Assembly: GCA_016234115.1 (NCBI GenBank)
Contig: JACRHD010000021.1
Coordinates: 26,185-90,184, forward strand
Direction of reading: 5' to 3'
Source: Nitrospirota bacterium
Lineage (GTDB): Bacteria > Nitrospirota > Thermodesulfovibrionia > UBA6902
Length of the DNA: 64,000 nt
The position numbers were made by a program, and so were the translations under genes. The first letter of the stretch is position 1. Each line of letters starts with the position of its first letter. Under the pieces are notes generated by a model. That model ran no database searches and had not been told where the DNA came from. It was given only the letters and a program-made list of their open reading frames with translations. Positions 10,734-24,505 of this stretch are shown in pieces.

Positions 10734-12998
10734 TCAAGATGACTGGAATTGATAATGCCCCGCAACTGCCTGTCCCAGCGATATCCCTCCGTCATTCGGG
10801 GGCACAGTCTGGTGGATCAAGGGAGCAAAGCCCCGCTCTTTCAGGCTTCTGAAGCTCTCTTCAAGCAGGATTACGTTCTGGAACACCCCTCCCGACAGGG
10901 CGACGGTCTTTATCCCGGTTTCATCCCTGATCAGCCCTGAAACATGCAGGACCATCGCGACAATCGTATTGTGGAATTTTCTCGCGAGCTCCTCTTTCGG
11001 GAGCCCCGCCCTCAGGTCATCCACGAGACGGTCGATGACCGGGAGATGGTAGATCATATTGTTTTTGACTATGCAGGGATATGAATCCGCAGTGTCTGAT
11101 TTCAGCGCAGCCTGTTCAAGCGCGATTGCCGCCTGGGCGTGATAAGAGACCTTGTGCGCAAGACCGATCAGCGACGCGACCCCGTCAAAGAGCCTGCCCA
11201 TGCTCGTCGTGACCGGAGAATTGACGCCGTTCTTCAGCATATTGATGAAGAAATCCGTCTCCTGCCGGCCCAGCGGCAGGAGATTGAGCTCCCGCGCCTT
11301 TTCCCCGAAGGCCCCGTACAAAAGCGAAAAGGCCGTCCTGCACGGCTCTTTTACCGCCTTGTCTCCGCCGGGAAGTTTATACGGCTGAAGGTGGTATGCC
11401 CTTTTGAATCCCCGGTAAGAAGCGATGAGGACCTCACCTCCCCATACGGTGTTGTCAGTGCCGAACCCGGCGCCGTCAAAGGCGAAACCGATTATTTCAT
11501 TGTCCGGGGGCGTCCCGTTTTCGGTCATGCAGGACAATATATGGGAATAGTGATGCTGAACTTTGACCAGCATGTCGCCGTAATGTCTTTCACCATATTT
11601 TGTGCTGTAATATCCCGGGTGCATATCGGAGACGACTATGCCGGGTTTCACATCCAGCAACCGCAGAAGATCGGCTATCGTTTCTTCATAAAAACCCGCT
11701 GCAAGGGGAGTGTCCAGATCGCCTATATGCTGGGACAGGAATACCTTGTCATCGATGCCGACCGCTATCGTGCTGTTCATATAGGGTCCCAGCGCGAGGA
11801 CGGGCTTTTTAAATCCGAAGGGGACCGTTACCGGAAGCGGGGCAAAGCCCCTGGAGCGCCTTACCGGGACCTGTCTTTCAGCCGCTATCCTGACGACCGA
11901 GTCGTCGCATCTCCTGACTATGGCCCTGTTGTGAGAAAGAAAATAATCCGCTATGCCGGACAGGCGTCCAAACGCGTCCTCTTCATCCTTTGCCACAGGC
12001 TCATCCGTAATGTTGGCGCTCGTCGCTATAAGAGGTCGTCTGAACTTTTTCAAAATCATATGGTGAAGAGGGGTATAAGGAAGAAAGGCCCCGACCGCGC
12101 TGTTGTCCGGGGAGACCCCTTTTGCAAGCGTCGCGGACTCCTTTTTTCTTACGATGACGATGGGTCTTTCGACGGAGCATATTGCGCGTTCTTCAGCGAC
12201 ATTCAGATAAGCCTCTTTTTTTATAGAGCCGATATTAGGGAACATCACCGCCATCGGTTTTTCTTCGCGGCCTTTCCTCTTTCTAAGCCTGCATACGGTC
12301 TCATCATTTTCGGCGTCGCAGATGAGATGGTATCCTCCGACGCCTTTGACCGCTATAATATAACCTTTACGCAACAGGCTGACCGCCTTTTCAAGGGCCT
12401 CTTCCTTTTCGCAGACCGGTTTGCCGTCACAGTCGTGAAGTCTTATCTTCGGACCGCAGACGTCACATGCGTTGGGCTGGGCATGGAACCTCCTGTCCGA
12501 CGGGAGGTTGTATTCCCTCTCGCACTCAGGACACATCCTGAACTCTTTCATGGACGTATTCTTTCTGTCATACGGAAGTGTGTGGATAATGGTAAAGCGC
12601 GGGCCGCAGTTTGTGCAGTTTGTAAAGGGATAGAGGAACCTCCTGTCCCTCGGGTTTGTGATGTCGCTTAAACATTCTTCGCAGGCAGAGATATCAGGAA
12701 GGATGAGGGCCCTTTTTTCCCCTTCCGCGCTGCTTTCCCGAATTTCAAATTTCTGAAAGCCGGTCTCTTCAAGGAACGCATGCCGGAGGCTGTAGATCCG
12801 GGCAAGGGCCGGTTTTTCTTTATCCGCACGGACAATGAAATCGTCGAGTGTTTCCTTAGCGCCCTCGACTTCCAGCAATACGCCTGACGCGGTGTTTGCG
12901 ACATAGCCTTTCAGTCCCATCTCTTCTGCAAGCCTGTGGACGAAGGGCCTGAAGCCGACCCCCTGGACAAGACCGGTGATGTCGATTTTCAGCCGCAT
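10734..12998 (-). CDS. hypF: [NiFe]-hydrogenase maturation carbamoyltransferase
   Basis: VQGVGFRPF, zinc fingers CEEC/CTNCGPR/CPEC/CDVCGP, QHH.SH, SMGRLFD, PPNDGGISLGQ. Confidence 0.96.
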   Translation of the reverse strand: MRLKIDITGLVQGVGFRPFVHRLAEEMGLKGYVANTASGVLLEVEGAKETLDDFIVRADKEKPALARIYSLRHAFLEETGFQKFEIRESSAEGEKRALILPDISACEECLSDITNPRDRRFLYPFTNCTNCGPRFTIIHTLPYDRKNTSMKEFRMCPECEREYNLPSDRRFHAQPNACDVCGPKIRLHDCDGKPVCEKEEALEKAVSLLRKGYIIAVKGVGGYHLICDAENDETVCRLRKRKGREEKPMAVMFPNIGSIKKEAYLNVAEERAICSVERPIVIVRKKESATLAKGVSPDNSAVGAFLPYTPLHHMILKKFRRPLIATSANITDEPVAKDEEDAFGRLSGIADYFLSHNRAIVRRCDDSVVRIAAERQVPVRRSRGFAPLPVTVPFGFKKPVLALGPYMNSTIAVGIDDKVFLSQHIGDLDTPLAAGFYEETIADLLRLLDVKPGIVVSDMHPGYYSTKYGERHYGDMLVKVQHHYSHILSCMTENGTPPDNEIIGFAFDGAGFGTDNTVWGGEVLIASYRGFKRAYHLQPYKLPGGDKAVKEPCRTAFSLLYGAFGEKARELNLLPLGRQETDFFINMLKNGVNSPVTTSMGRLFDGVASLIGLAHKVSYHAQAAIALEQAALKSDTADSYPCIVKNNMIYHLPVIDRLVDDLRAGLPKEELARKFHNTIVAMVLHVSGLIRDETGIKTVALSGGVFQNVILLEESFRSLKERGFAPLIHQTVPPNDGGISLGQAVAGHYQFQSS

Positions 12999-13051
12999 AC
13001 GGAGCCCAGCGTGTTCTTTTTCCGCAACCTGAGTTTTAATCCCGCCCTGTC

Positions 13052-15514
13052 CTACCTCACCGCCTCCACGTTCACCGCGACGATGGGGCACTCCCCGTTT
13101 ACGGCGAGATGCGTCAGCGCGTGGATCTTGGCGTGCGGGAAATGCGCGGGCACGAAGAGGGTCCCCTCGGGGACGGCGCCTGAATACTTTGCCTTGAGGA
13201 AAACCGAGCCCTGCCTGGAGGACAGCTTCACGTGGCTGTTGTCCAGTACGCCCAGCTTCTTGGCGTCATCCTCATTGATCTCAAGGAGCGCTTCCGAGAT
13301 GACGAGGTCCAGGGACCTGGAGCTGGTCGACATGCTGCCTGAATGCTGCAGGACGTCCCTGATGACGAGATTGAACGGATAAATACCCCCTGTTTCCTCG
13401 CACGGGCCGTATTCAACGGGATTAAAAGCGCTCTTTTTTTCAGGCTCCGGCTTTGCAGTCAGCATGGCCTTGATCTCTTCCTGGATTGCCTGGAGGTTCC
13501 GGCTCCCCATTTCTTTCCCCATGATAAGCGCGAGGTTCTTGAAAATCATCCAGTCGGGCACTGACTCGCCCGAGGGATCGACTAATTTGTGGACCTGCTG
13601 CAGGAGGCCCTCCGCGTTCATGAAGGTGCCGTCCTTCTCCGCCCAGCTCGAGGCCGGCAGTACGACGTGCGCAAGTTTGGCGGTTTCCGTAAAGAAGATA
13701 TCCTGCACCACGAGGAAACTCAGGGCCTTCAGTCTCCTGACGACCTGAGAGCTGTCAGGGAAGGTCACGGCCGGGTCTTCTCCCATGACGTACATCGCCT
13801 TAATGCCGGAGGCTTCATTGTATAGCATCTCTTTCACCCCCGCTCCCGACGGCTGACCGGAAGGCCTTACCCCCATTTGATAGAGACCGAAGGTATTTGA
13901 ATACTCGGCGGGTATCTGAAGTGACCGGGGATCATCACCTAAAAGATGGACCAGGTTGGCTGCGGCAAGGACTGCATCCGACCCCTTTGTGTTTTCAGAC
14001 GCGCTGAGAGACAGCGAGATCATCCTGCTCTTTGCCGAGGCAAGGTCCGTTGCGGCGCTGATGATTTCGTCTTCAGGCACGCCCGTGATCTTTGAAACCT
14101 TTTCAGGGGTATAATTTTCGAGCATGGTCCTTAACGGTTTGAAGCCCGCAACATTCTCTGCATCCTTGCTGAACAGGTTCCTGTCGATAATCACTTTCAT
14201 GAGTCCGTTCAGAAGGGCAATTCCTGTACCGTCCTTCAGCCTCAGCCACTGTGTGCTGTGCCTTGTCAGTTTGGTTTCCCTTGAATCCGCGACAATAAGT
14301 TTGGAACCTTCCCTCTTTGCCTGGAGTATGTTGAGGCCGAATACCGGGTGAGTTACCGAGGTATCCGATTCGATAATCAGGACAACGTCCTTGCCCAGAG
14401 GGGATTTCAGGTTTATGGGATGGGCGTCCCCGCCGAACGCCTTTTCCCAGGCCGTCTGCACCCTGCCGTATCCGAAAGAGGCGGATGAATCGATATTGCC
14501 GGAGCCGACGATCTTTCTCATGAATTTCTGGAGGCTGTAATTGTCTTCGTTGGTGCACCGGGGCGAGCCGATCGCGCCGATGGCGTTTGCGCCGTCATGC
14601 TGAATAATCTGTTTTAAATTGTCGGAGATAAAGGTCAGCGCCTTTTCCCACGAGACTTCTACAAACTCGTTCCCCTGTTTTATAAGAGGGCTTTTGAGCC
14701 TCTTTTCGCTGTAGATATAATCGATGCCGAACCTTCCCCTGCCGCACAGGTTGCCGTCGTTGACGCCCTTGCCCTCAACTCCTTTTGATCTCAGTATCTT
14801 CCCTTCTCTCAATCCGAGGGTGAGGGTGCAGCCGACGCCGCAGAACGGACAGATGGTCTCTTTTTCTTCGAGAAACCATGAGCGCGCGGTAAACTTGTAC
14901 GGCTTGCTCAGTATCGCGCCGGTCGGGCAAATATCGAGACATTGCCCGCAGTAATCGCATTCGAGTATCTCGCCGAAGGCAGGCTGTACAATAGTGGGAA
15001 AGCCCCTGCCGATCAGACCGAGCGCGGCCCTTCCCTGGTGTTCGGCGCATATCCTGACGCATTTGCCGCAGAGGATGCACCTTCTCGAGGTCAGCTCGAT
15101 CAACGGCCCCCTGACGTCGGGCATTGCCTGTTTCCTGTTTCTTAAAAACCGCGAGTGGGGTTTCCCGTACTCATACGCAAGGTCCTGCAGGTCGCACTCT
15201 CCTGCCTTGTCGCATTCCGGGCAGTCAAGGGGATGATGCACCAGAAGCAGCTCGATCACTGTCTGGCGCAGCTTCCTGAGTTTCGGAGTGTCGGTATTGA
15301 TGACCATCCCGTTTTCAGCGGGGGATGAGCACGCGGCAAAGAGCCGCGCCTGTCCCTCTACCTCGACAATGCATAGCCTGCAACCGCCGTAGGGCCTCAG
15401 CCTCTTGTCGGCGCATAGGTTCGGGATGTATATGCCGTTCTTCAGGGACGCCTGAAGAATGGTCGAGCCGTCATCCGCCGTAATCTGTTTACCGTTTATA
15501 GTTAAATTTATCAT
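13052..15514 (-). CDS. NuoG/FdhF-like large subunit (HydA/BfuA-type): 2Fe-2S, four 4Fe-4S, molybdopterin-fold domain lacking the metal-ligating Cys
   Basis: GGCRLC, HHPLDCPECDKAGEC, CILCGKC, CDYCGQC, CPFCGVGC. NIDSSASFG occupies the position of FdhF N.DxCARx(C/U)H. Confidence 0.85.
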   Translation of the reverse strand: MINLTINGKQITADDGSTILQASLKNGIYIPNLCADKRLRPYGGCRLCIVEVEGQARLFAACSSPAENGMVINTDTPKLRKLRQTVIELLLVHHPLDCPECDKAGECDLQDLAYEYGKPHSRFLRNRKQAMPDVRGPLIELTSRRCILCGKCVRICAEHQGRAALGLIGRGFPTIVQPAFGEILECDYCGQCLDICPTGAILSKPYKFTARSWFLEEKETICPFCGVGCTLTLGLREGKILRSKGVEGKGVNDGNLCGRGRFGIDYIYSEKRLKSPLIKQGNEFVEVSWEKALTFISDNLKQIIQHDGANAIGAIGSPRCTNEDNYSLQKFMRKIVGSGNIDSSASFGYGRVQTAWEKAFGGDAHPINLKSPLGKDVVLIIESDTSVTHPVFGLNILQAKREGSKLIVADSRETKLTRHSTQWLRLKDGTGIALLNGLMKVIIDRNLFSKDAENVAGFKPLRTMLENYTPEKVSKITGVPEDEIISAATDLASAKSRMISLSLSASENTKGSDAVLAAANLVHLLGDDPRSLQIPAEYSNTFGLYQMGVRPSGQPSGAGVKEMLYNEASGIKAMYVMGEDPAVTFPDSSQVVRRLKALSFLVVQDIFFTETAKLAHVVLPASSWAEKDGTFMNAEGLLQQVHKLVDPSGESVPDWMIFKNLALIMGKEMGSRNLQAIQEEIKAMLTAKPEPEKKSAFNPVEYGPCEETGGIYPFNLVIRDVLQHSGSMSTSSRSLDLVISEALLEINEDDAKKLGVLDNSHVKLSSRQGSVFLKAKYSGAVPEGTLFVPAHFPHAKIHALTHLAVNGECPIVAVNVEAVR

Positions 15515-15531
15515 TATCTATCTCCCAAATT

Positions 15532-15615
15532 AGAGTTATGAGTCAAGAGTTAAGAGTTAAGGGGGTAACCATCAGTAAGGTTATACTTGACTCTTAACTC
15601 ATCACTCTTGACTCT
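15532..15615. repeat. Palindromic heptamer element, GAGTTAA/GAGTCAA family
   Basis: (agagtta)n...(tgactct/taactc)n between the NuoF-like and NuoG-like genes. Confidence 0.85.
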
Positions 15616-15618
15616 TTC

Positions 15619-17454
15619 TTATTTCATTGCCGGTTCCTTTTTCTCTTTAACCGCCGCCGGCCCTATCTCTATGGACCCGAATTTACATGTATCGTAGCAG
15701 GTCCGGCACTGGATGCAGAGTTCCTGGATGATCCTGTGGGGGACCTTCTTTTCCCCGACGATCGCCTTTTGCGGGCAGGCCCGTAAACACGCGCCGCAGG
15801 CCTTGCACAGCTCTTCGTTTATGTGGAAGGAGCAGAGGTTTCTGCATATCCCCGCCTTGCACCAGTGGTCTTTGATGTGGGATTCATATTCATCCCTGAA
15901 GTATCTTATTGTGGAAAGGACCGGATTGGGGGCCGTCTGCCCTAATCCGCAAAGGGAAGTAGCTATAACATCCCTGCTGAAATCTTCGAGGATCTCTATG
16001 TCGCCATCTTTTCCCTTGCCCTCGCAGATATCGGTAAGCATGTCTAACATGACGCGCGTGCCTATCCTGCACGGGGTGCATTTGCCGCAGGACTCATCTG
16101 CCGTAAATTCGAGGAAGAATTTCGCGGTGCTGACCATACAGGTGTCTTCGTCCATGACGACCATGCCGCCTGAACCCATGATCGCGCCTGTCTTGACCAC
16201 GTCTTCATAGGTCACGGGAATCTCTATGAGGCCCATGGGGATACACCCGCCTGAGGGGCCGCCCATCTGCACGGACTTGAATTTCTTCTTTTTGTTTTTC
16301 ATGCCCCCGCCGATGTCATAGATTATCGTCTTAAGCGGGATGCCCATCGGTACTTCGACGAGGCCGACGTTTTTAATATCGCCTGTAAGCGCAAACACCT
16401 TTGTGCCCGCGCTCTTTTCAGTCCCGAGCGTCCTGTACCATTCAGCTCCGTGCAGGATGATCGGGGAAATCTGCGCGAGGGTCTCGACATTGTTCAGGAC
16501 AGAGGGTTTGTCCCATAAGCCCTTGTGGGCAGGGAAAGGCGGCCTCGGCCTCGGCATGCCGCGCTTGCCTTCTATGGAGCGCATAAGGGCGGTCTCTTCG
16601 CCGCACACGAACGCGCCAGCGCCAAGATATATTTCAAGGTCAAAGGCGAAACCGCTGCCGAAGATGTCTTCTCCGAGGAGACCTTTTTCATGGCAATCAT
16701 TGATGGCCTTCTGGAGACGTTTTACTGCAAGCGGGTATTCCGCCCTGACGTATATTACTCCTTTGCTTGAGCCTATCGCCCTTGCGCCTATGATCATTCC
16801 TTCGATGACCGAATGCGGGTCCGCTTCCATGACGGACCTGTCCATGAACGCGCCGGGGTCCCCTTCATCACCGTTACAGAGCATGTATTTCTGGTCTGCC
16901 ACAGACTTTGAAGCGAATTCCCATTTCAATCCCGTGGGGAACCCCGCGCCTCCGCGACCCCTCAGCCCGGAGTCTTTCACTACCTTTATAATGTCCGCGG
17001 GCGTCATTTCCGTAAGGGCCTTTGCGGCAGCCATATATCCGTCCCGGGCAATGTATTCCTCGAGGCTGTCAGGGTCTATCATGCCTTTGTTCCTCAGGAC
17101 CCTCAGGACCTGGTGCTTGAAGAACGGGATCTCGTTCATGGCCGGGATCGCGTGTTTCTTCTCAGGCTCCTTGTAGAGCAGTTTTTCGTAGGGACGCCCT
17201 TTCAGGAAATGCTCTTCAACTAATTTCGGCATTTCATCCACGGTCATTTTCTGATAAAAGATCCCTTCCGGGTAGACGAGCATGACCGGGCCTTCGGCGC
17301 AGAAGCCGTTACAGCCGGTGAGCACTATCTTTATCTCATCCGCAAGCCCCCTCTTTTCAAGCTCCTCCTGCAAGGCGGCCCTGACCTTTGGGGTCCCGCT
17401 CGCAACGCACCCTGTCCCGGCGCACATCAGTAAATTTGTACGAACTTTTTCCAT
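15619..17454 (-). CDS. NuoF/HydB-like NADH/FMN-binding subunit
   Basis: N-terminal thioredoxin-like 2Fe-2S, GRGGAGFP, NGDEGDPGAFMDR, CGEETAL, GGPSGG, ESCGKCTPCR, C-terminal 2x4Fe-4S. Confidence 0.93.
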   Translation of the reverse strand: MEKVRTNLLMCAGTGCVASGTPKVRAALQEELEKRGLADEIKIVLTGCNGFCAEGPVMLVYPEGIFYQKMTVDEMPKLVEEHFLKGRPYEKLLYKEPEKKHAIPAMNEIPFFKHQVLRVLRNKGMIDPDSLEEYIARDGYMAAAKALTEMTPADIIKVVKDSGLRGRGGAGFPTGLKWEFASKSVADQKYMLCNGDEGDPGAFMDRSVMEADPHSVIEGMIIGARAIGSSKGVIYVRAEYPLAVKRLQKAINDCHEKGLLGEDIFGSGFAFDLEIYLGAGAFVCGEETALMRSIEGKRGMPRPRPPFPAHKGLWDKPSVLNNVETLAQISPIILHGAEWYRTLGTEKSAGTKVFALTGDIKNVGLVEVPMGIPLKTIIYDIGGGMKNKKKKFKSVQMGGPSGGCIPMGLIEIPVTYEDVVKTGAIMGSGGMVVMDEDTCMVSTAKFFLEFTADESCGKCTPCRIGTRVMLDMLTDICEGKGKDGDIEILEDFSRDVIATSLCGLGQTAPNPVLSTIRYFRDEYESHIKDHWCKAGICRNLCSFHINEELCKACGACLRACPQKAIVGEKKVPHRIIQELCIQCRTCYDTCKFGSIEIGPAAVKEKKEPAMK

Positions 17455-17474
17455 TTATATTTCTCCTTAATAAA

Positions 17475-17571
17475 GCAAGTAGTTAGTAGTAAGTAGTTAG
17501 TAGTTAGGGGGGGCGCTGGTCTCAAATTCCCATCTTTTCCCTTAACTGCTAACTACTAACTACTTTCTACT
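17475..17571. repeat. Palindromic heptamer element, TAGTAGT family
   Basis: Same arms and GGG...CCCTTAAC junction as 2018-2102. Confidence 0.85.
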
Positions 17572-17575
17572 GTCC

Positions 17576-17959
17576 TTAATATGTTGTCTCGCTCCCTACG
17601 ACCAGGGCGTATTTTTCAACGGGATTGCCGCCGAGGACATGCTCTTTGAATATCTCCCGTATCTTCTCTTTGTTAAGGTCGCCGTATTTTACGGGCGGTT
17701 TATTAAGCAGCTCCACCGTGACCATGGGCTCACGGGCGCAAAGACCTGCGCAGCCTGAAGTCGTGGTAATCACGTCTTCCGCCTTTGACTGGGCTATCTC
17801 ATCGAGCAGCACCGTCATGACTTCCCTCGCGCCGGCCGCGATCCCGCAGGTGCCCATATGGACGGTCACCTTTGCCCTGTAACCGCCTTCTCTAAGGGAA
17901 AAAGTGGCCTTCTGTTTGTCCTTTATCTTCTTCAGGTCTTCAATTGTCAGCCTCGCCAT
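17576..17959 (-). CDS. Thioredoxin-like 2Fe-2S ferredoxin (HydD-type)
   Basis: HMGTCGIAAGA...SGCAGLC..EP. Confidence 0.88.
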   Translation of the reverse strand: MARLTIEDLKKIKDKQKATFSLREGGYRAKVTVHMGTCGIAAGAREVMTVLLDEIAQSKAEDVITTTSGCAGLCAREPMVTVELLNKPPVKYGDLNKEKIREIFKEHVLGGNPVEKYALVVGSETTY

Positions 17960-17971
17960 AAAATCTCCTTT

Positions 17972-18054
17972 GGGTCAAGGGTCAGGGGTCAGAGGTCAAG
18001 CGGCCAGGAAGTACTTTACTTCTTGACCCTTGCCCCATGACCCTTGACCCTGAC
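17972..18054. repeat. Palindromic heptamer element, GGGTCAA family
   Basis: gggtcaa gggtcag gggtcag aggtcaa...ttgaccc ttgcccc atgaccc ttgaccc. Confidence 0.85.
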
Positions 18055-18058
18055 TTTT

Positions 18059-18934
18059 TCACGCGTATTCCTTCAAAATATCCGGCACCTTCTTCGGGTT
18101 CATGGCGCCGTATGTTTCCTCGTCGATAACCATGACCGGCGCCAGCCCGCAGGCCCCGAGGCAGCGGACGGTCTCCAATGAGAATTTCTTGTCTTCCGTC
18201 ACCTCGCCGACATCTATCTTGAGGTCTTCTTTTATCCTGTTCAGGACCTCTTCAACCCTTTTTACGTAACATGCGGTGCCGAGGCAGATCCTGATATTAT
18301 GGTCTCCTCTGGGCTTCATTGTGAAAAAAGAGTAAAAGGAGACGATGCCGTGTATCTCGGCCGGCGTCATGTTCAATCCCTTTGCAATTCGCTTCTGCAC
18401 CTCGGGAGGGAGATATCCGACTATTTGCTGACAGCGCTGAAGCACAGGGATGGAGCTTCCGGGTTTGCTCCTGTACTGGCTTATGACCCTGTCTATCTCC
18501 TGCAGCATTGACGGGGGCAGTTCTTCTTTCTTTTCCTTTGGCTCAAGAGGAGCTTTCTTCTCCCTTATCCAGCTTACCGCCCTCTGGGTCACATCTAACA
18601 GGACGGTCGGGGTAAAAGGCTTCGGAACATAATCTATAATGCCGAGCTCCAGGGCGTCCTTTATCGTGTCCTGGGAAGGATAACCGGTGATTATCACGAC
18701 ACCCGTGTCCGGTCTTTTCTGCCGGATCCATCTTATGAGGGTTATGCCGTCCACTTCAGGCATTTTAAGGTCGGTAAAGACAAGGTCGAAAGGCTGCTGT
18801 TCCATCCGGAGTATCGCGTCTTTCGCGCTCAGCAGTCCCTGGACGTTGTATCCCTCCGACTTAAGGATGCTCTCACAGCTTCTTATTATTATCGGCTCGT
18901 CGTCAACGACCAGTATTTTTAAATCATCAACCAT
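18059..18934 (-). CDS. Response-regulator receiver fused to NuoE/HydC 2Fe-2S subunit
   Basis: REC: VVDDE, TDLKMP, ITG, KPF. NuoE: FYSFF, ICLGTAC, RCLGACGLAP. Confidence 0.9.
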   Translation of the reverse strand: MVDDLKILVVDDEPIIIRSCESILKSEGYNVQGLLSAKDAILRMEQQPFDLVFTDLKMPEVDGITLIRWIRQKRPDTGVVIITGYPSQDTIKDALELGIIDYVPKPFTPTVLLDVTQRAVSWIREKKAPLEPKEKKEELPPSMLQEIDRVISQYRSKPGSSIPVLQRCQQIVGYLPPEVQKRIAKGLNMTPAEIHGIVSFYSFFTMKPRGDHNIRICLGTACYVKRVEEVLNRIKEDLKIDVGEVTEDKKFSLETVRCLGACGLAPVMVIDEETYGAMNPKKVPDILKEYA

Positions 18935-18952
18935 TTAATGTCTCCTCATTAA

Positions 18953-19031
18953 AAGGGTTCAAGGGTTAAGGGTTCGAGGGTTCAAGTGAGGGTCTTACTC
19001 GACCCCTCGAACCCTTAACCCCTTGGACCCT
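18953..19031. repeat. Palindromic 7-8-mer element (GGGTTCAA variant)
   Basis: agggttca agggtta agggttcg agggttca...tcgacccc tcgaaccc ttaacccc ttggaccc. Confidence 0.8.
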
Positions 19032-19034
19032 AAA

Positions 19035-19808
19035 TTAAGTCTGTTCACTTGCCAGCGGCAGCACCCTTGCCAGCCAGAGCAGCCACCCTTCCGACAGGTG
19101 GTCTTTCAGCAGGGCGACCATTACATCGTTTGCCTTCGTATTGATTTCTCTCAGCTCTCCGCTCATGGGCGAATTCAGGTCGCTCACCGGACTGCTGCTT
19201 GCATAAAGCCTTGCGAAAGGCTTTCCGGCTTCCAGACTGTCTATATCCTGCATGAATTCCACATACACGAGATTGCCCGCCAGCATCCAGTACCTGAGGT
19301 CGCAGCCGATCTCCCACAGACCGTCTTTGACCGGCCTGGCCCAGGTGCCTTCTTTATAGAAGATGACCGGGTTTTCCGCGTCCCTGAGGGGGGTCACGGA
19401 GTCCCTGAACTCGTCGATGAAGGCCTGCCTCAGTATCCACCCCCGCGTGTCGAAAACCTTGTTGGCGACATTGATCATGAAGTCCGGAGTAAAGGGCTTT
19501 TCGATATATTCAAACGCGCCGAGGCGTGAAGATTCCCTCGCGTCTTCGAGGGTCGGATAGCCGGTGATGATGACAACGTCCGTCTTGGGCTTGAGGACCC
19601 GCGCCTCCTTCAGCACGGTCATGCCGTTTATATCAGGCAGTCTTACATCCGAGATGAAGAGGTCGAAGTCTTCCCTGGCCAGCTTGTTGAGGGCGTCCTC
19701 TCCTCTTTCCGCGGTCGATATGCTGTATCCTTCGGCGCCAAGAATCCTCTTGCAGCTTAACGTCACGACAGGGTCATCGTCGAGTACTAAAATTCTCCCT
19801 TTTTCCAC
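19035..19808 (-). CDS. Response-regulator receiver fused to glycine-cleavage-H-like domain
   Basis: REC: VLDDD, SDVRLP, ITG, KPF. The C-terminus follows the GcvH pattern (W.R...G...IG, VYVE, G.PF, SP.SG...E.N, EGWL). Confidence 0.8.
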   Translation of the reverse strand: MEKGRILVLDDDPVVTLSCKRILGAEGYSISTAERGEDALNKLAREDFDLFISDVRLPDINGMTVLKEARVLKPKTDVVIITGYPTLEDARESSRLGAFEYIEKPFTPDFMINVANKVFDTRGWILRQAFIDEFRDSVTPLRDAENPVIFYKEGTWARPVKDGLWEIGCDLRYWMLAGNLVYVEFMQDIDSLEAGKPFARLYASSSPVSDLNSPMSGELREINTKANDVMVALLKDHLSEGWLLWLARVLPLASEQT

Positions 19809-19959
19809 TGAGCCACCTTTTCTGAGTGATCATGCGCCCCCCGTCGCCCCAAGGCATCGCAACGGGAAGCGGGAGATTTTGATTAAATAATTTGTTTTCA
19901 AAATCCCCCCGTCTCCCCCTGTTTCAAAGGGGGAAAATATGTGCCGGTGAACTTTTGGG

Positions 19960-20511
19960 CTATTGTAGCATATTGTTTGCAATAATTAGCCATGCACTTA
20001 TATCATCTTTAATAATTTTTATTACTTCGGGGGTGTTCAGGGGAACGCCGTCCAGTTCTTTACGAATGTCGGCGATATTTAAAGTATAAACATCGTCATC
20101 CTTCCGGTGCTCGAAGATAAAGTCGATCTCCGGGTTGGAGGCAATCAGGACTATAAGCGTATTGCAAATGTCCCCGAGCGGTTTCCTGTCCACGTGATCG
20201 CACTGAAAACAGGCGCTGATAGTCGTGCCCTTCCCTTTTTCAGTCTTGATGGTCAAATCCCCGCAGCATTCTCTCGCTGCCTGGGCCAACAGGGGAATCC
20301 CCAACCCGACCTTCCGCACTGTCTTTGTGGTAAAAAAAGGGTCTGTAATTTGTTGGACCGTCTTGCTGTCCATCCCCTTGCCGTTGTCGCTTATTTCAAG
20401 GAGAAGGAGGTTCTTCCCGGTGTCTTCAACGATCTTAATCCTGATTTCCGTAGCGCCCGCGGCTATGGAGTTTTCCGCGATGTCGAGGATGTGTAATGAA
20501 AGGTCCTGCAT
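19960..20511 (-). CDS. Stand-alone HATPase_c protein of the type found in bifurcating hydrogenase operons
   Basis: MQDLSLHILDI.ENS, DNGKGM, DPFFTTK..RKVGLG, HVDR.PLGD; no HisKA domain. Confidence 0.85.
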   Translation of the reverse strand: MQDLSLHILDIAENSIAAGATEIRIKIVEDTGKNLLLLEISDNGKGMDSKTVQQITDPFFTTKTVRKVGLGIPLLAQAARECCGDLTIKTEKGKGTTISACFQCDHVDRKPLGDICNTLIVLIASNPEIDFIFEHRKDDDVYTLNIADIRKELDGVPLNTPEVIKIIKDDISAWLIIANNMLQ

Positions 20512-20814
20512 ACTTTTAAAGCATTATAACAAAAAATGAAGGAGGGGTGTGAATAACCCGGGCAGCATACCTGCGAAGCCCCTAATCGCTAAATTCCCCC
20601 TTTGAAAAAGGGGGATGAAGGGGGATTTTGAAATAAAGGCATCTATCAGAACACCCTCTGTCCGGTTATAATGGCCACTAACGTTTTAATAGGACATCAA
20701 CATCTTCATCAAGGTAGATCGAGATCAACGGACTGAAGGATGGATGATTTTATCAGATCAGAAAATTAGTTCTATCATTTCGCCTTTTTTTGTTTCTTAC
20801 CTGAGATCCGTGAG

Positions 20815-22780: not shown

Positions 22781-22859
22781 CGTCATTCCCGCATGCCTTT
22801 AGCGGGAATCCAGTAGTTCTTAGTCTCTGGATGCCCGATAAAAACCTCGGGCATGACGG
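22781..22859. repeat. REP-like double hairpin, GTCATTCCCG family
   Basis: Near-identical to 7284-7360. Confidence 0.85.
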
Positions 22860-22955: not shown

Positions 22956-23798
22956 TCAAACCTCCGGCAGCATTATGTTGATCTGCGCGCCGGGGAAAAA
23001 AGGAAGATTCGACTCTTTCTCCTTCCCCCAGGCCCATTCAGGGATGATCGACAGCTTGGCCTTCCCCGAGCGGATCGATATTTTCCCGTTCCACTCCTTT
23101 ACCAGCCTCCTGACGGCGGCGAGCCCGTGTCCCCTGCCCGCGTCTTCATATCTTGACATGCCGCAGAGGAGCGCCTTCTCAATCGCCTCGAGGTCGTTAC
23201 CCACCTGAATTCTCCTGGCGAGGGACTCCCTGAAGCCTATCCCCAAATCCATCACCGCGATCTTGACGACGTTCCTGTCTATTTTATGAAAGTGATATTT
23301 CTGGATGCCTACAAATCCCGTGTTCTCGCTGTGCTCGATGATGTTCTGGCACACCTCGGAAAGCGCGACAATGAAGGAGTTGACAGCGCGCTCGTCATAG
23401 TGAAGATGTTTGGCGAGGATCGCATGAGCGCGCTTTTTTACCCTGCCGACAATAAAATGGATATCATCCGATTTCTCAATCGGCGTAATTTCCAGAAGGA
23501 CGTCCGAGCCGGGGCTCCGCAAATACCTGACCGGTATGTCCGGTCTTTGCGGCCTGACGTCAAAATACCCGCCAGCGTACCTGAAGAAATCCATCCTCTC
23601 AAGATATTTGAGCGCGTCCGCCGACCGTGGAAGCAGGAGGGTCTTTCTCTTTTGTTGAAGCGCGAGAAGTCGTCCGGTCTCCAACAGGCCGACTATCCCG
23701 TAGGGGTCGATGAACGTTACGTCGCGCAGGTCGATTGCTTCAGAGCCGGACGTCCCGGAGAGGAACAATTCAAAGGTGTCGTCGGAAAGGTGTGTCAT
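22956..23798 (-). CDS. STAS-like + HATPase (anti-sigma kinase-like) protein
   Basis: IDL..VTFIDP.G (STAS-like), SEVCQNIIEHS, D.GIG, GRGHGL, PGAQI. Confidence 0.75.
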   Translation of the reverse strand: MTHLSDDTFELFLSGTSGSEAIDLRDVTFIDPYGIVGLLETGRLLALQQKRKTLLLPRSADALKYLERMDFFRYAGGYFDVRPQRPDIPVRYLRSPGSDVLLEITPIEKSDDIHFIVGRVKKRAHAILAKHLHYDERAVNSFIVALSEVCQNIIEHSENTGFVGIQKYHFHKIDRNVVKIAVMDLGIGFRESLARRIQVGNDLEAIEKALLCGMSRYEDAGRGHGLAAVRRLVKEWNGKISIRSGKAKLSIIPEWAWGKEKESNLPFFPGAQINIMLPEV

Positions 23799-23833
23799 GC
23801 GAATTCTTTGCCCTATGCGCTTTGCTCTCTGCC

Positions 23834-24505
23834 CTACGCAATTATCATCCCGTCCCTCATTCTTATAATCCTCCCGCATCCGGCTGCGAGGGTTTCATTA
23901 TGGGTCACGATGATAAACGTTGTGCCTTTTTTGTTCAGGTCTTTCAGGAGCTGAAACAACTCTTCCCCGGTCTGAGTATCGAGATTGCCCGTAGGTTCGT
24001 CCGCCAGCACGACCTTGGGGTCGAGCATAAGAGCCCTCGCAACGGCGACCCTCTGCTGCTCGCCGCCTGAAAGCTCGCCCGGCTTGTGAGTCAATCTGCC
24101 GGAAAGCCCGACACCGGAAAGTATCTGTGAGGCCCTCTTTACGGCTTCGTCGCGATTGGTCCCCGAGATGAGCGCCGGCATCATCGCATTTTCAAGGGTG
24201 TTGAACTCCGGCAGGAGGTGGTGAAACTGAAAGACATAACCTACAGACCTGCTCCTGAAGAGGCACAGGGCGTCTTCCTTCAGCGCAAAGACGTCTTGCC
24301 CTTCATAAAAGACATTGCCTGAAGAAGGCTTATCGAGCGTTCCAAGTATATGAAGCAGTGTGCTCTTGCCGACCCCTGACGGCCCCATAAGGGCGACCAT
24401 TTCTCCTCGGGGCACATCAAAGGTAATGTCCTTCAGCACACGCAGCGCGCCGCCCGGCGTGGTAAACGTCTTGTTCAGGTCCTTAACGCTTATTAACGGT
24501 TCCAT
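23834..24505 (-). CDS. lolD: Lipoprotein-releasing ABC ATPase
   Basis: GPSGVGKSTLL..LGTLD.P, FQFHHLL.EF, LSGGEQQR, ADEPTGNLD. Confidence 0.92.
   Translation of the reverse strand: MEPLISVKDLNKTFTTPGGALRVLKDITFDVPRGEMVALMGPSGVGKSTLLHILGTLDKPSSGNVFYEGQDVFALKEDALCLFRSRSVGYVFQFHHLLPEFNTLENAMMPALISGTNRDEAVKRASQILSGVGLSGRLTHKPGELSGGEQQRVAVARALMLDPKVVLADEPTGNLDTQTGEELFQLLKDLNKKGTTFIIVTHNETLAAGCGRIIRMRDGMIIA

Follow-up and report, generated by a model that had tools for sequence, protein, structure and literature searches.

Bfu-type enzymes balance the pools of NADH, ferredoxin and a third carrier in anaerobes, and 17 clades of the family are given without an assigned function in the main text of Schut et al. 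2022 (PMC9304861). The closest described systems include the HydABC and HndABCD [FeFe] hydrogenases of T. maritima, T. kivui, A. woodii and D. fructosovorans, and the StnABC and NfnABC enzymes (S. ovata 8oh5; archaeal 9bov and 9n5u). The latter combine the Bfu core with an inactive FdhF-like A-subunit domain as scaffold and oligomer interface, according to the portion of the cited paper drawn on here (PMC10482914). The Nuo-Bfu type (clades 38/39 in the main text of Schut et al. 2022) and the NAD-dependent formate dehydrogenases FdsABG (R. capsulatus 6tg9; 9wxb) are also related. Here, a Bfu operon from a Nitrospirota genome is described. The window is the whole stretch of 64,000 nucleotides (nt) that was analysed; all positions are window positions, its contig is called C1, and C10, C22, C51 and C52 are other contigs of the same genome. 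Seven open reading frames (ORFs) run head to tail at 10734-20511, all on the minus strand (Table 1), and their domain content was taken from Pfam and NCBIfam profile searches. An earlier annotation made from the letters alone (the sequence-only reading) had claimed seven co-directional genes for a HATPase, two receiver (REC) fusions named REC-GcvH and REC-NuoE, a small ferredoxin, NuoF, a NuoG/FdhF-like protein and HypF; these ORFs were found where it had placed them, with the domains it had described. Six of the seven genes belong together, and HypF is excluded. The unit is a known enzyme family in a new form, with built-in receivers and no end enzyme. It is probably a Bfu-family NADH/ferredoxin module under two-component control, with a third redox partner encoded elsewhere.

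The redox core is of the bifurcating type, as had been proposed. The NuoF-type protein (BfuB) contains an N-terminal 2Fe-2S domain, the FMN/NADH site, an N3-type 4Fe-4S site, a His/Cys site and a C-terminal 2x[4Fe-4S] domain. It was aligned with the NiFe-HydB of A. mobile (7t2r_B) at 825.7 bits over residues 4-595, with the B subunit of FeFe-HydABC (7q4v_B) at 814.8 bits over the full length, and with 8a6t_B, also over the full length; every cluster Cys was aligned in all three. The B subunits of Stn and NfnABC gave 687-718 bits. The cluster Cys and the motifs are invariant across 32 orthologues. Because the alignments run over the full length and the cluster Cys are conserved, the protein falls under the sequence definition of BfuB, which was taken from the main text of Schut et al. 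2022 (PMC9304861). Among the motifs named by the sequence-only reading, GAFMD (residue 201), F..V..GGPSG (residue 392) and the extra 2x4Fe-4S domain are present; the literal pattern C..H.....C....C was not found in BfuB, where the matching stretch reads H526-x3-H530-x-C532-x4-C537-x3-C541. The partner subunit REC-NuoE (BfuC) matched PF01257 with 170.7 bits over profile positions 1-144 of 145, which is a complete NuoE-type domain. The operon product would thus be expected, to judge from its sequence, to have bifurcation activity.

A tree of 81 BfuB rows was reconstructed by a quick IQ-TREE run (LG+G4), with support from the SH-like approximate likelihood ratio test (SH-aLRT) only. The window BfuB fell into a 45-row clade (SH-aLRT 99), which also holds the REC-Bfu of the class, the Nuo-Bfu of another family, Desulfobacterota loci with a dead A subunit, and REC-NuoE loci of KSB1 and Zixibacteria. 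The tree does not resolve the branching order within this clade, including the relation to Nuo-Bfu. The tree also held 31 HydB rows of FeFe hydrogenases: 28 formed a separate clade, two were on a long basal branch, and one was unplaced. The gene order of HydABC and HndABCD (NuoE-type subunit, small 2Fe-2S protein, long NuoF, A subunit) is the same as in the window; moreover, the window BfuB has every extra cluster domain of these hydrogenases, and genes for DRTGG, HATPase_c_2, PHP and HATPase proteins are common to both. The window unit differs from them in four respects: the A subunit has no H-cluster and is a full NuoG/FdsA-like protein without the catalytic residues; BfuC has a receiver; there is an additional gene for a receiver joined to a GcvH fold; and BfuB lies outside the clade of the 28 HydB rows. 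The claim that the operon holds no catalytic terminal module was confirmed, since a Pfam scan of the operon and its flanks found no H-cluster, GltD or NiFe gene within the operon.

The A subunit (BfuA) contains the domains Fer2_4, NADH-G_4Fe-4S_3, Fer4_Nqo3, Molybdop_Fe4S4, Molybdopterin and Molydop_binding, in the same order as FdsA, and no GltD domain. Its closest solved relatives are the FdsA subunits (6tg9 and 9wxb, 405-409 bits); the best of these scores is 408.7 bits, as against at most 261 for any complex-I NuoG in the PDB. The formate dehydrogenase profile TIGR01591 gave 467.5 bits (cut-off 666), and the NuoG profile TIGR01973 gave 463.3 bits (cut-off 470.05), so both are below their thresholds. 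Unlike FdsABG, the window system has a NuoF of the long bifurcating type rather than the short FdsB type, and the catalytic residues Cys386 and His387 and the arginine motif of FdsA are replaced in BfuA. Specifically, ARVCHS of R. capsulatus FdsA reads ASFGYG, so that Cys-His has become Gly-Tyr, and RGQNNVQG has become QIPAEYSNTFG; the A subunit had been called "Mo-less" by the sequence-only reading, and the description holds at the sequence level. The five Fe-S sites have 20 ligands, and every one of these is invariant in 31 of 31 orthologues, as is G348 in place of the catalytic Cys; FGY and QIPAE(Y/F)xNT occur in nearly all of the 31. The genome's own Fdh-Bfu on C52 retains U-H and RGQNNVQG. 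Since the Cys-His pair and the arginine motif are lost while the Fe-S ligands are kept, BfuA is best regarded as a NuoG-type wire or scaffold and not as a formate dehydrogenase, and its formate dehydrogenase-like domain appears to be catalytically dead. The locus would then illustrate clearly how a formate dehydrogenase can become a wire or scaffold without catalytic function.

The dead domain may nevertheless be an enzyme of another kind, with a Mo/W-bis-pterin cofactor lacking a protein ligand, another substrate and a remodelled site (FGY, LQIPAEYSNT). Such a cofactor without a protein ligand is found in arsenite oxidase. The substituted residues are themselves conserved, with G348 invariant in the 31 orthologues; the motifs lining the pterin pocket of real formate dehydrogenases (EKDGT, QHSG and PAHF) are conserved in BfuA, and these together with the adjacent 4Fe-4S site (C222/C225/C229/C257) are invariant. 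However, in genomes of this class complex-I NuoG carries the same Gly-Tyr and EKxGT-type pocket motifs, and to our knowledge the complex-I NuoG subunit family lacks a pterin cofactor. Column identity is also lower in the formate dehydrogenase-like part (50-55%) than in the Fe-S part (about 70%). An active BfuA is thus considered very unlikely, and the wire or scaffold is preferred. By analogy, StnC offers a direct precedent for a dead FdhF-like domain in an A subunit; in the part of the paper used here, this domain is described as catalytically inactive and as mediating tetramer formation (PMC10482914). Unlike StnABC and NfnABC, the window system has receivers, and its BfuA has no fused GltD/NADPH domain.

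The two receivers on enzyme-type domains, which had been flagged as unusual, were confirmed, and their phospho-acceptor residues are intact and invariant. In REC-GcvH, D10/D11/D12, D54 and K104 are invariant and T82 nearly so among 34 orthologues, down to 49% identity. In REC-NuoE, D11, D12, D55, T83 and K105 and the four cluster Cys are invariant among 31 orthologues, down to 43% identity, and the receiver is joined to the NuoE domain by a charged linker of about 30 amino acids (aa). All 120 of the closest REC-NuoE database clusters (73-90% identity) have both domains, the named ones being metagenome-assembled genomes (MAGs) of Nitrospirota, and about a dozen 50%-identity clusters are full-length REC-NuoE fusions. 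Response regulators such as PorX, RssB and CheB are similar to the window proteins in having a canonical receiver, no DNA-binding output and a non-transcriptional effector; here, unlike in those proteins, the effectors are a subunit of a multi-cluster redox complex and an H-protein fold. No description of a receiver fused to NuoE, HydC or HndA, or of a REC-GcvH protein, was found in the literature searched, and the words "receiver" and "histidine kinase" do not occur in the main text, supplements excluded, of the Bfu family paper (PMC9304861). The protein P0121 (578 aa), considered as a candidate fusion of REC-GcvH with REC-NuoE, is actually a tandem REC-NuoE. Another database protein, P0128 (1217 aa), has three receivers fused to an FAD/NAD-binding and multi-4Fe-4S (HdrA-like) part.

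The C-terminal domain of REC-GcvH resembles the H protein of the glycine cleavage system in fold. Searched against the PDB, a profile of the domain gave 14 matches, all of them H-proteins (best E 5.9e-8), and for its structural model, with a mean predicted local distance difference test (pLDDT) value of 87, the top 21 fold matches listed were all H-proteins at a template modelling (TM) score of about 0.6. In a fold search with the full-length protein, receiver-domain matches dominated, with PorX and RssB among the matches listed. The lipoyl-lysine of the H protein lies in the hairpin motif E-S-V-K-A. The lipoyl Lys of E. coli GcvH aligns with Gly or Ser in REC-GcvH, and no Lys is conserved there in the 34 orthologues; therefore, the domain is not a lipoyl carrier. 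Mimicry of the N-terminal barrel-sandwich domain of RnfC/NqrA was also considered and rejected, since the fold matches listed were H-proteins and weak biotinyl/lipoyl domains only. An atlas look-up gave GCV_H clusters at 0.79, which is under the level that counts and serves as a lead only. Prediction of a complex between the GcvH-like domain and BfuB plus the NuoE domain, with alignment input, scored 0.00; this is no answer and is neutral.

The distribution of the receiver proteins was examined in 400 genomes sampled evenly across the phylum, of which 134 belong to the same class or closer (presumably Thermodesulfovibrionia) and 266 are others. Of the 134 class genomes, 81 contain a full-length REC-NuoE and 63 the GcvH-like domain (E<=4e-30); neither was found in any of the 266 others. 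Both receiver proteins occur together in 61 sampled genomes; REC-NuoE alone was found in 20 and REC-GcvH alone in two. One genus (14 sampled genomes, about 1.9 Mb) has neither, and 48 genomes of one other family contain a receiver-less NuoE of 43-60% identity. Synteny was compared in 42 loci, namely 40 around REC-GcvH matches and two named loci. REC-NuoE, BfuB and BfuA lie downstream of REC-GcvH on the same strand in 31 of them (29 strictly, and one each in which BfuA is split or BfuB is fused), and the HndB-like orthologue is a separate gene in most related loci. Among the other 11 loci, four are cut by contig ends and seven have no REC-NuoE, BfuB or BfuA within 14 kb. These seven include L118, L121, L122 and L127, from two families, in which REC-GcvH directly follows a canonical nuoE-F-G; a REC-Bfu operon is present elsewhere in the genome in three of these four cases, and in the fourth, which was checked by BfuB only. 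The sequence-only reading had named a lack of conservation in relatives among the findings that would refute it; the receiver fusions and the gene order are kept across the whole class (81/134 genomes; 31/42 loci).

The receiver fusion was also found outside the phylum. A KSB1 MAG (L011:532-7657) encodes HndB, REC-NuoE and BfuB, followed by a short, 214-aa BfuA, a 555-aa HdrA-like flavoprotein, MvhD and a CCG protein of the HdrB/C type. A Zixibacteria MAG (L017:4504-10562) repeats this order as far as a 137-aa ORF where its contig ends; of these proteins, Pfam confirms BfuA and the flavoprotein only. Since the receiver is attached to Hdr-linked Bfu in these loci, the fusion of receiver and BfuC recurs with different end modules.

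Candidate signalling genes were found next to the operon in relatives. ORF clustering showed genes upstream of REC-GcvH for a HAMP-HisKA-HATPase kinase and a single-domain CheY, often joined by one for a REC-sigma54-HTH protein (NtrC-type). Of 27 REC-Bfu loci, 14 contain a homologue of the kinase. A search of the relatives for TGGCAY-N5-TTGCW with at most one mismatch revealed, in 11 of 41 loci, a sigma-54 promoter-like site 5-62 nt ahead of the REC-GcvH start as called (30-62 nt in 10 of the 11); no such site was found before REC-NuoE (0/31), HATPase (0/15) or BfuB (0/34). In the window genome, the kinase is at C10:17284-18417, and the kinase, CheY, DRTGG, HATPase_c_2, DRTGG and PHP genes lie together at 17284-21249 of C10, divergent from the nuo operon.

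The data do not support the HATPase-only protein of the operon as kinase of the receivers. Pfam recognised no HisKA domain in it, only HATPase_c; its gene is the last of a cassette (DRTGG/HATPase_c_2/DRTGG/PHP/HATPase), and its orthologues adjoin the PHP gene in relatives. The cassette is shared with HydABC loci of FeFe hydrogenases in other phyla, which have no receivers (PHP and HATPase in 19/29, DRTGG and HATPase_c_2 in 16/29), and its genes also occur in Nuo-Bfu loci. The absence of HisKA and this association with receiver-less loci indicate that the protein is not the receivers' kinase; a true HAMP-HisKA kinase is found upstream in relatives. The DRTGG/HATPase_c_2/PHP/HATPase cassette is a general companion of Bfu operons.

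Taken with the redox core, these findings outline a possible mechanism. Receiver-fused BfuC, HndB, BfuB and BfuA would form a flavin/iron-sulfur complex of the HydABC, Hnd, Stn or Nuo-Bfu type. BfuB and BfuC would be the core reacting with NADH and ferredoxin, and BfuA a putative NuoG-type wire of five Fe-S clusters with a dead formate dehydrogenase-like domain. Because this domain appears dead, the operon would be an electron input and transfer module whose third partner is encoded apart. The membrane HAMP-HisKA kinase, CheY and the NtrC-type sigma-54 activator, a gene set seen in relatives, would drive transcription; the same kinase would phosphorylate the receivers on BfuC and on the lipoyl-less GcvH-fold protein, and this could gate assembly, oligomeric state or partner docking post-translationally. 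Receiver phosphorylation, its post-translational effect and the existence of the partner are thus what we infer from the sequences. The arrangement suggests a redox enzyme that is switched directly by a sensor kinase. The receivers built into a widespread complex, together with an adjacent kinase, an NtrC-type regulator and sigma-54 promoters in relatives, make post-translational gating now testable.

Several observations weigh against this interpretation. A complex without a third substrate cannot bifurcate, and the operon encodes none. The 20 genomes with REC-NuoE only and the two with REC-GcvH only show that the two receiver proteins are not strictly interdependent, and the retained EKDGT, QHSG and PAHF motifs mean that BfuA could still bind a cofactor and keep some catalysis. 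The representative REC-NuoE P0126 has a degenerate phospho-site. In the window genome, the kinase is on a contig other than the operon's, and with the cassette genes on C10 and the operon in the window, the unit is split in this assembly. No sigma-54-like site was found upstream of the window operon on the right strand with up to two mismatches; in the whole window there were 17 such matches, under the shuffle mean of 24.9. The degenerate site of some members such as P0126 and the separation of the operon from its kinase would also fit receivers that are structural relics or pseudo-receivers, with control being transcriptional only, via NtrC. However, the residues of the phospho-acceptor site show no or almost no variation across the 31 and 34 orthologues, which span 43-90% identity, and the KSB1 and Zixibacteria loci carry the receiver fusion on other Bfu types; relic receivers are therefore regarded as distinctly unlikely, and two-component control of the module remains the preferred reading.

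The sequence-only reading had also supposed docking of the module to a separately encoded partner, which may occur. Among the candidates, the link to complex I is the most suggestive. BfuABC might serve as an alternative input of complex I, docking via the NuoG-like BfuA onto the quinone/membrane part of Nuo and replacing NuoEFG or working beside it. NADH and reduced ferredoxin would then drive menaquinone reduction, and the receivers would time the swap. BfuA has the same Gly-Tyr as the complex-I NuoG of the class, and its TIGR01973 score is close to the cut-off (463.3 against 470.05). In one other family of the phylum, genes for HATPase, NuoE, HndB, a BfuB 67% identical to the window's and NuoG lie between genes of nuoA/B and nuoH-M size; the nuo genes around this set were identified by order and length only. 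The arrangement fits the Nuo-Bfu type as given in the main text of Schut et al. 2022 (PMC9304861), and its A subunit is dead and NuoG-like, as here, with BfuB in the same SH-aLRT 99 clade. Moreover, nuo genes lie within 20 kb in 11 of the 42 loci, with REC-GcvH directly after nuoG in four, and the kinase-CheY-DRTGG-PHP genes of the window genome are divergent from nuo on C10.

On the other hand, the Nuo-Bfu of the other family is inside the nuo operon, its NuoE has no receiver, and its NuoG, of 706-726 aa, has a deletion where the active site used to be and is shorter than the window BfuA (820 aa). The window unit is stand-alone, as in 31 of the 42 loci, and not in a nuo operon, and the nuo operon of the class has its own NuoEFG. 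Canonical NuoH occurs in 128 of the 134 class genomes irrespective of REC-Bfu and in 383 of 401 genomes overall; because it is near-universal with or without REC-Bfu, the NuoH profile is uninformative. BfuA also scores nearer to FdsA (408.7 bits) than to the complex-I NuoG of the PDB (at most 261), and the relation to Nuo-Bfu within the BfuB clade is not resolved. An alternative input of complex I is accordingly judged rather unlikely, and menaquinone reduction with a receiver-timed swap, which is part of the same proposal, just as doubtful. The recurrent nuo linkage nevertheless suggests where the third partner may be sought. The fuller proposal is that the kinase phosphorylates both receivers and that phosphorylation decides between docking onto a membrane partner (e.g. 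complex I as alternative input) and idling; this is somewhat less likely still. If true, it would be a case of post-translational two-component control of respiratory electron input.

Another candidate partner is a separate NADP(H) module. The unit might be a Stn/Nfn-Bfu-like transhydrogenase in pieces, with a GltD/NfnAB-type module giving the third substrate. The StnC and NfnABC A-subunits (8oh5_C and 9bov_A), which carry the dead FdhF-like domain, match BfuA over residues 79-675 and 135-649. An NfnAB-like pair lies between REC-GcvH and REC-NuoE in two loci (L102:12191-14474 and L109:5454-7729), and a homologous pair is present in the window genome on the same contig as the operon. However, the insertion occurs in only two of the 42 loci, BfuA has no GltD domain, and NfnAB is a self-sufficient bifurcating enzyme, so that the linkage is equally well explained by shared regulation. 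This version is therefore highly improbable, and a module with its partner encoded elsewhere is still favoured. The locus L102 also contains a tandem second BfuB-BfuA pair.

A hydrogenase as third partner is unlikely. The rival reading would be that BfuABC is the diaphorase part of a NiFe hydrogenase, as HypF would suggest: the HypF gene comes straight after that of BfuA, the two are separated by no terminator-like site, and the best PDB match of BfuB is the B subunit of NiFe-HydABCSL. The protein is a true HypF, as the acylphosphatase domain, the two Zn fingers and the YrdC-like and Kae1-like domains are all present; its start is likely the ATG at 12998, since the TIGR00143 match begins only at residue 36. 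The absence of a terminator-like site makes read-through transcription from BfuA to HypF possible in the window genome. The junction of the two genes is bridged by one contig of metagenome run X1, which may stem from the source sample, and not bridged in X2 and X3. However, not one of the 42 related loci has a same-strand HypF downstream of BfuA, and in one locus HypF is on the opposite strand. The inclusion of HypF in the operon by the sequence-only reading was thus not borne out; it is a chance neighbour and not a conserved member of the unit. Furthermore, the only NiFe large subunit in the genome adjoins a small subunit with NiFe_hyd_SSU_C and a cytochrome b, which is the periplasmic uptake type. 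The NiFe diaphorase is accordingly extremely unlikely.

Two other Bfu-type loci of the same genome have obvious end enzymes, namely a selenocysteine-type formate dehydrogenase (C52) and carbon monoxide dehydrogenase/acetyl-CoA synthase (CODH/ACS; C22). On C52 (L147:5794-11431, minus strand), a second Bfu operon encodes NuoE, a 609-aa BfuB, a cyclic nucleotide (cNMP)-binding protein and a formate dehydrogenase that an in-frame TGA at the U-H site, likely selenocysteine, divides into 354 and 518 aa; the cNMP-binding protein is a possible further regulatory add-on. On C22 (L148:5232-14973, minus strand), ACS/CODH is followed by a 629-aa BfuB-like NuoF, a 197-aa NADH_4Fe-4S/Fer4 protein and a 671-aa NuoG-like protein, and this cluster looks Codh-Bfu-like. 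A cluster of about seven genes on C51 (L159:4664-12594, minus strand) includes one weak match of the NuoH type (135.7 bits), and a 533-aa ORF there contains a NuoD-like match; a search for NiFeSe_Hases in this cluster gave no match. It may be a complex related to energy-converting hydrogenases, without an evident input module.

Table 1. Genes at window positions 10734-20511 and the evidence for their assignment.
Product	Position	Strand	Evidence
HATPase-only (GHKL ATP-binding) protein, 183 aa	19960..20511	-	PF02518 HATPase_c residues 8-102
REC-GcvH-like protein, 257 aa	19035..19808	-	Response_reg + linker helix + GCV_H (32.4 bits, cut-off 22.2)
REC-NuoE (BfuC/HydC/HndA type), 291 aa	18059..18934	-	Response_reg + 2Fe-2S_thioredx
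HndB/HydD-like small thioredoxin-like [2Fe-2S] protein, 127 aa	17576..17959	-	PF01257 weak + fdxn_Clost
BfuB (HydB/HndC type NuoF), 611 aa	15619..17454	-	Pfam, NCBIfam, PDB alignment
BfuA (NuoG/FdsA type), 820 aa	13052..15514	-	Pfam, NCBIfam, PDB alignment
HypF carbamoyltransferase, 785 aa as called	10734..13091	-	TIGR00143, 824 bits (cut-off 466)

The PF01257 match of the HndB-like protein (22.1 bits) is just below the cut-off, and the protein also matches fdxn_Clost. The genes flanking the operon are unrelated to it; on one side they encode an MFS transporter, PdxA and Ham1, and beyond the other end come small ORFs and genes for a phosphoglycerate mutase and an ABC transporter. Beside the ABC-transporter genes, a 307-aa protein (22956-23879, minus strand) has a C-terminal HATPase_c/HATPase_c_2 domain, with no HisKA recognised.

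The operon stretch was matched solely by groundwater metagenome contigs assembled from DNA, with no RNA data set among the matches listed. The HATPase gene is flanked by a dispersed, roughly 40-nt repeat (C5-T3-GAAA...G5-type hairpins), which has about 80 matches in the genome and lies at about 20592-20633 and, as an inverted copy, at about 19895-19934. At this repeat, the contig depth is several hundred times that of the flanks, and the metagenome contigs of all three runs (X1-X3) break. No copy of it was found on C10, which is neutral on the idea that C10 and C1 are misjoined at the repeat. At a second high-depth spot (22782-22843), the contigs of all three runs end and their continuations differ; this is probably another dispersed repeat.

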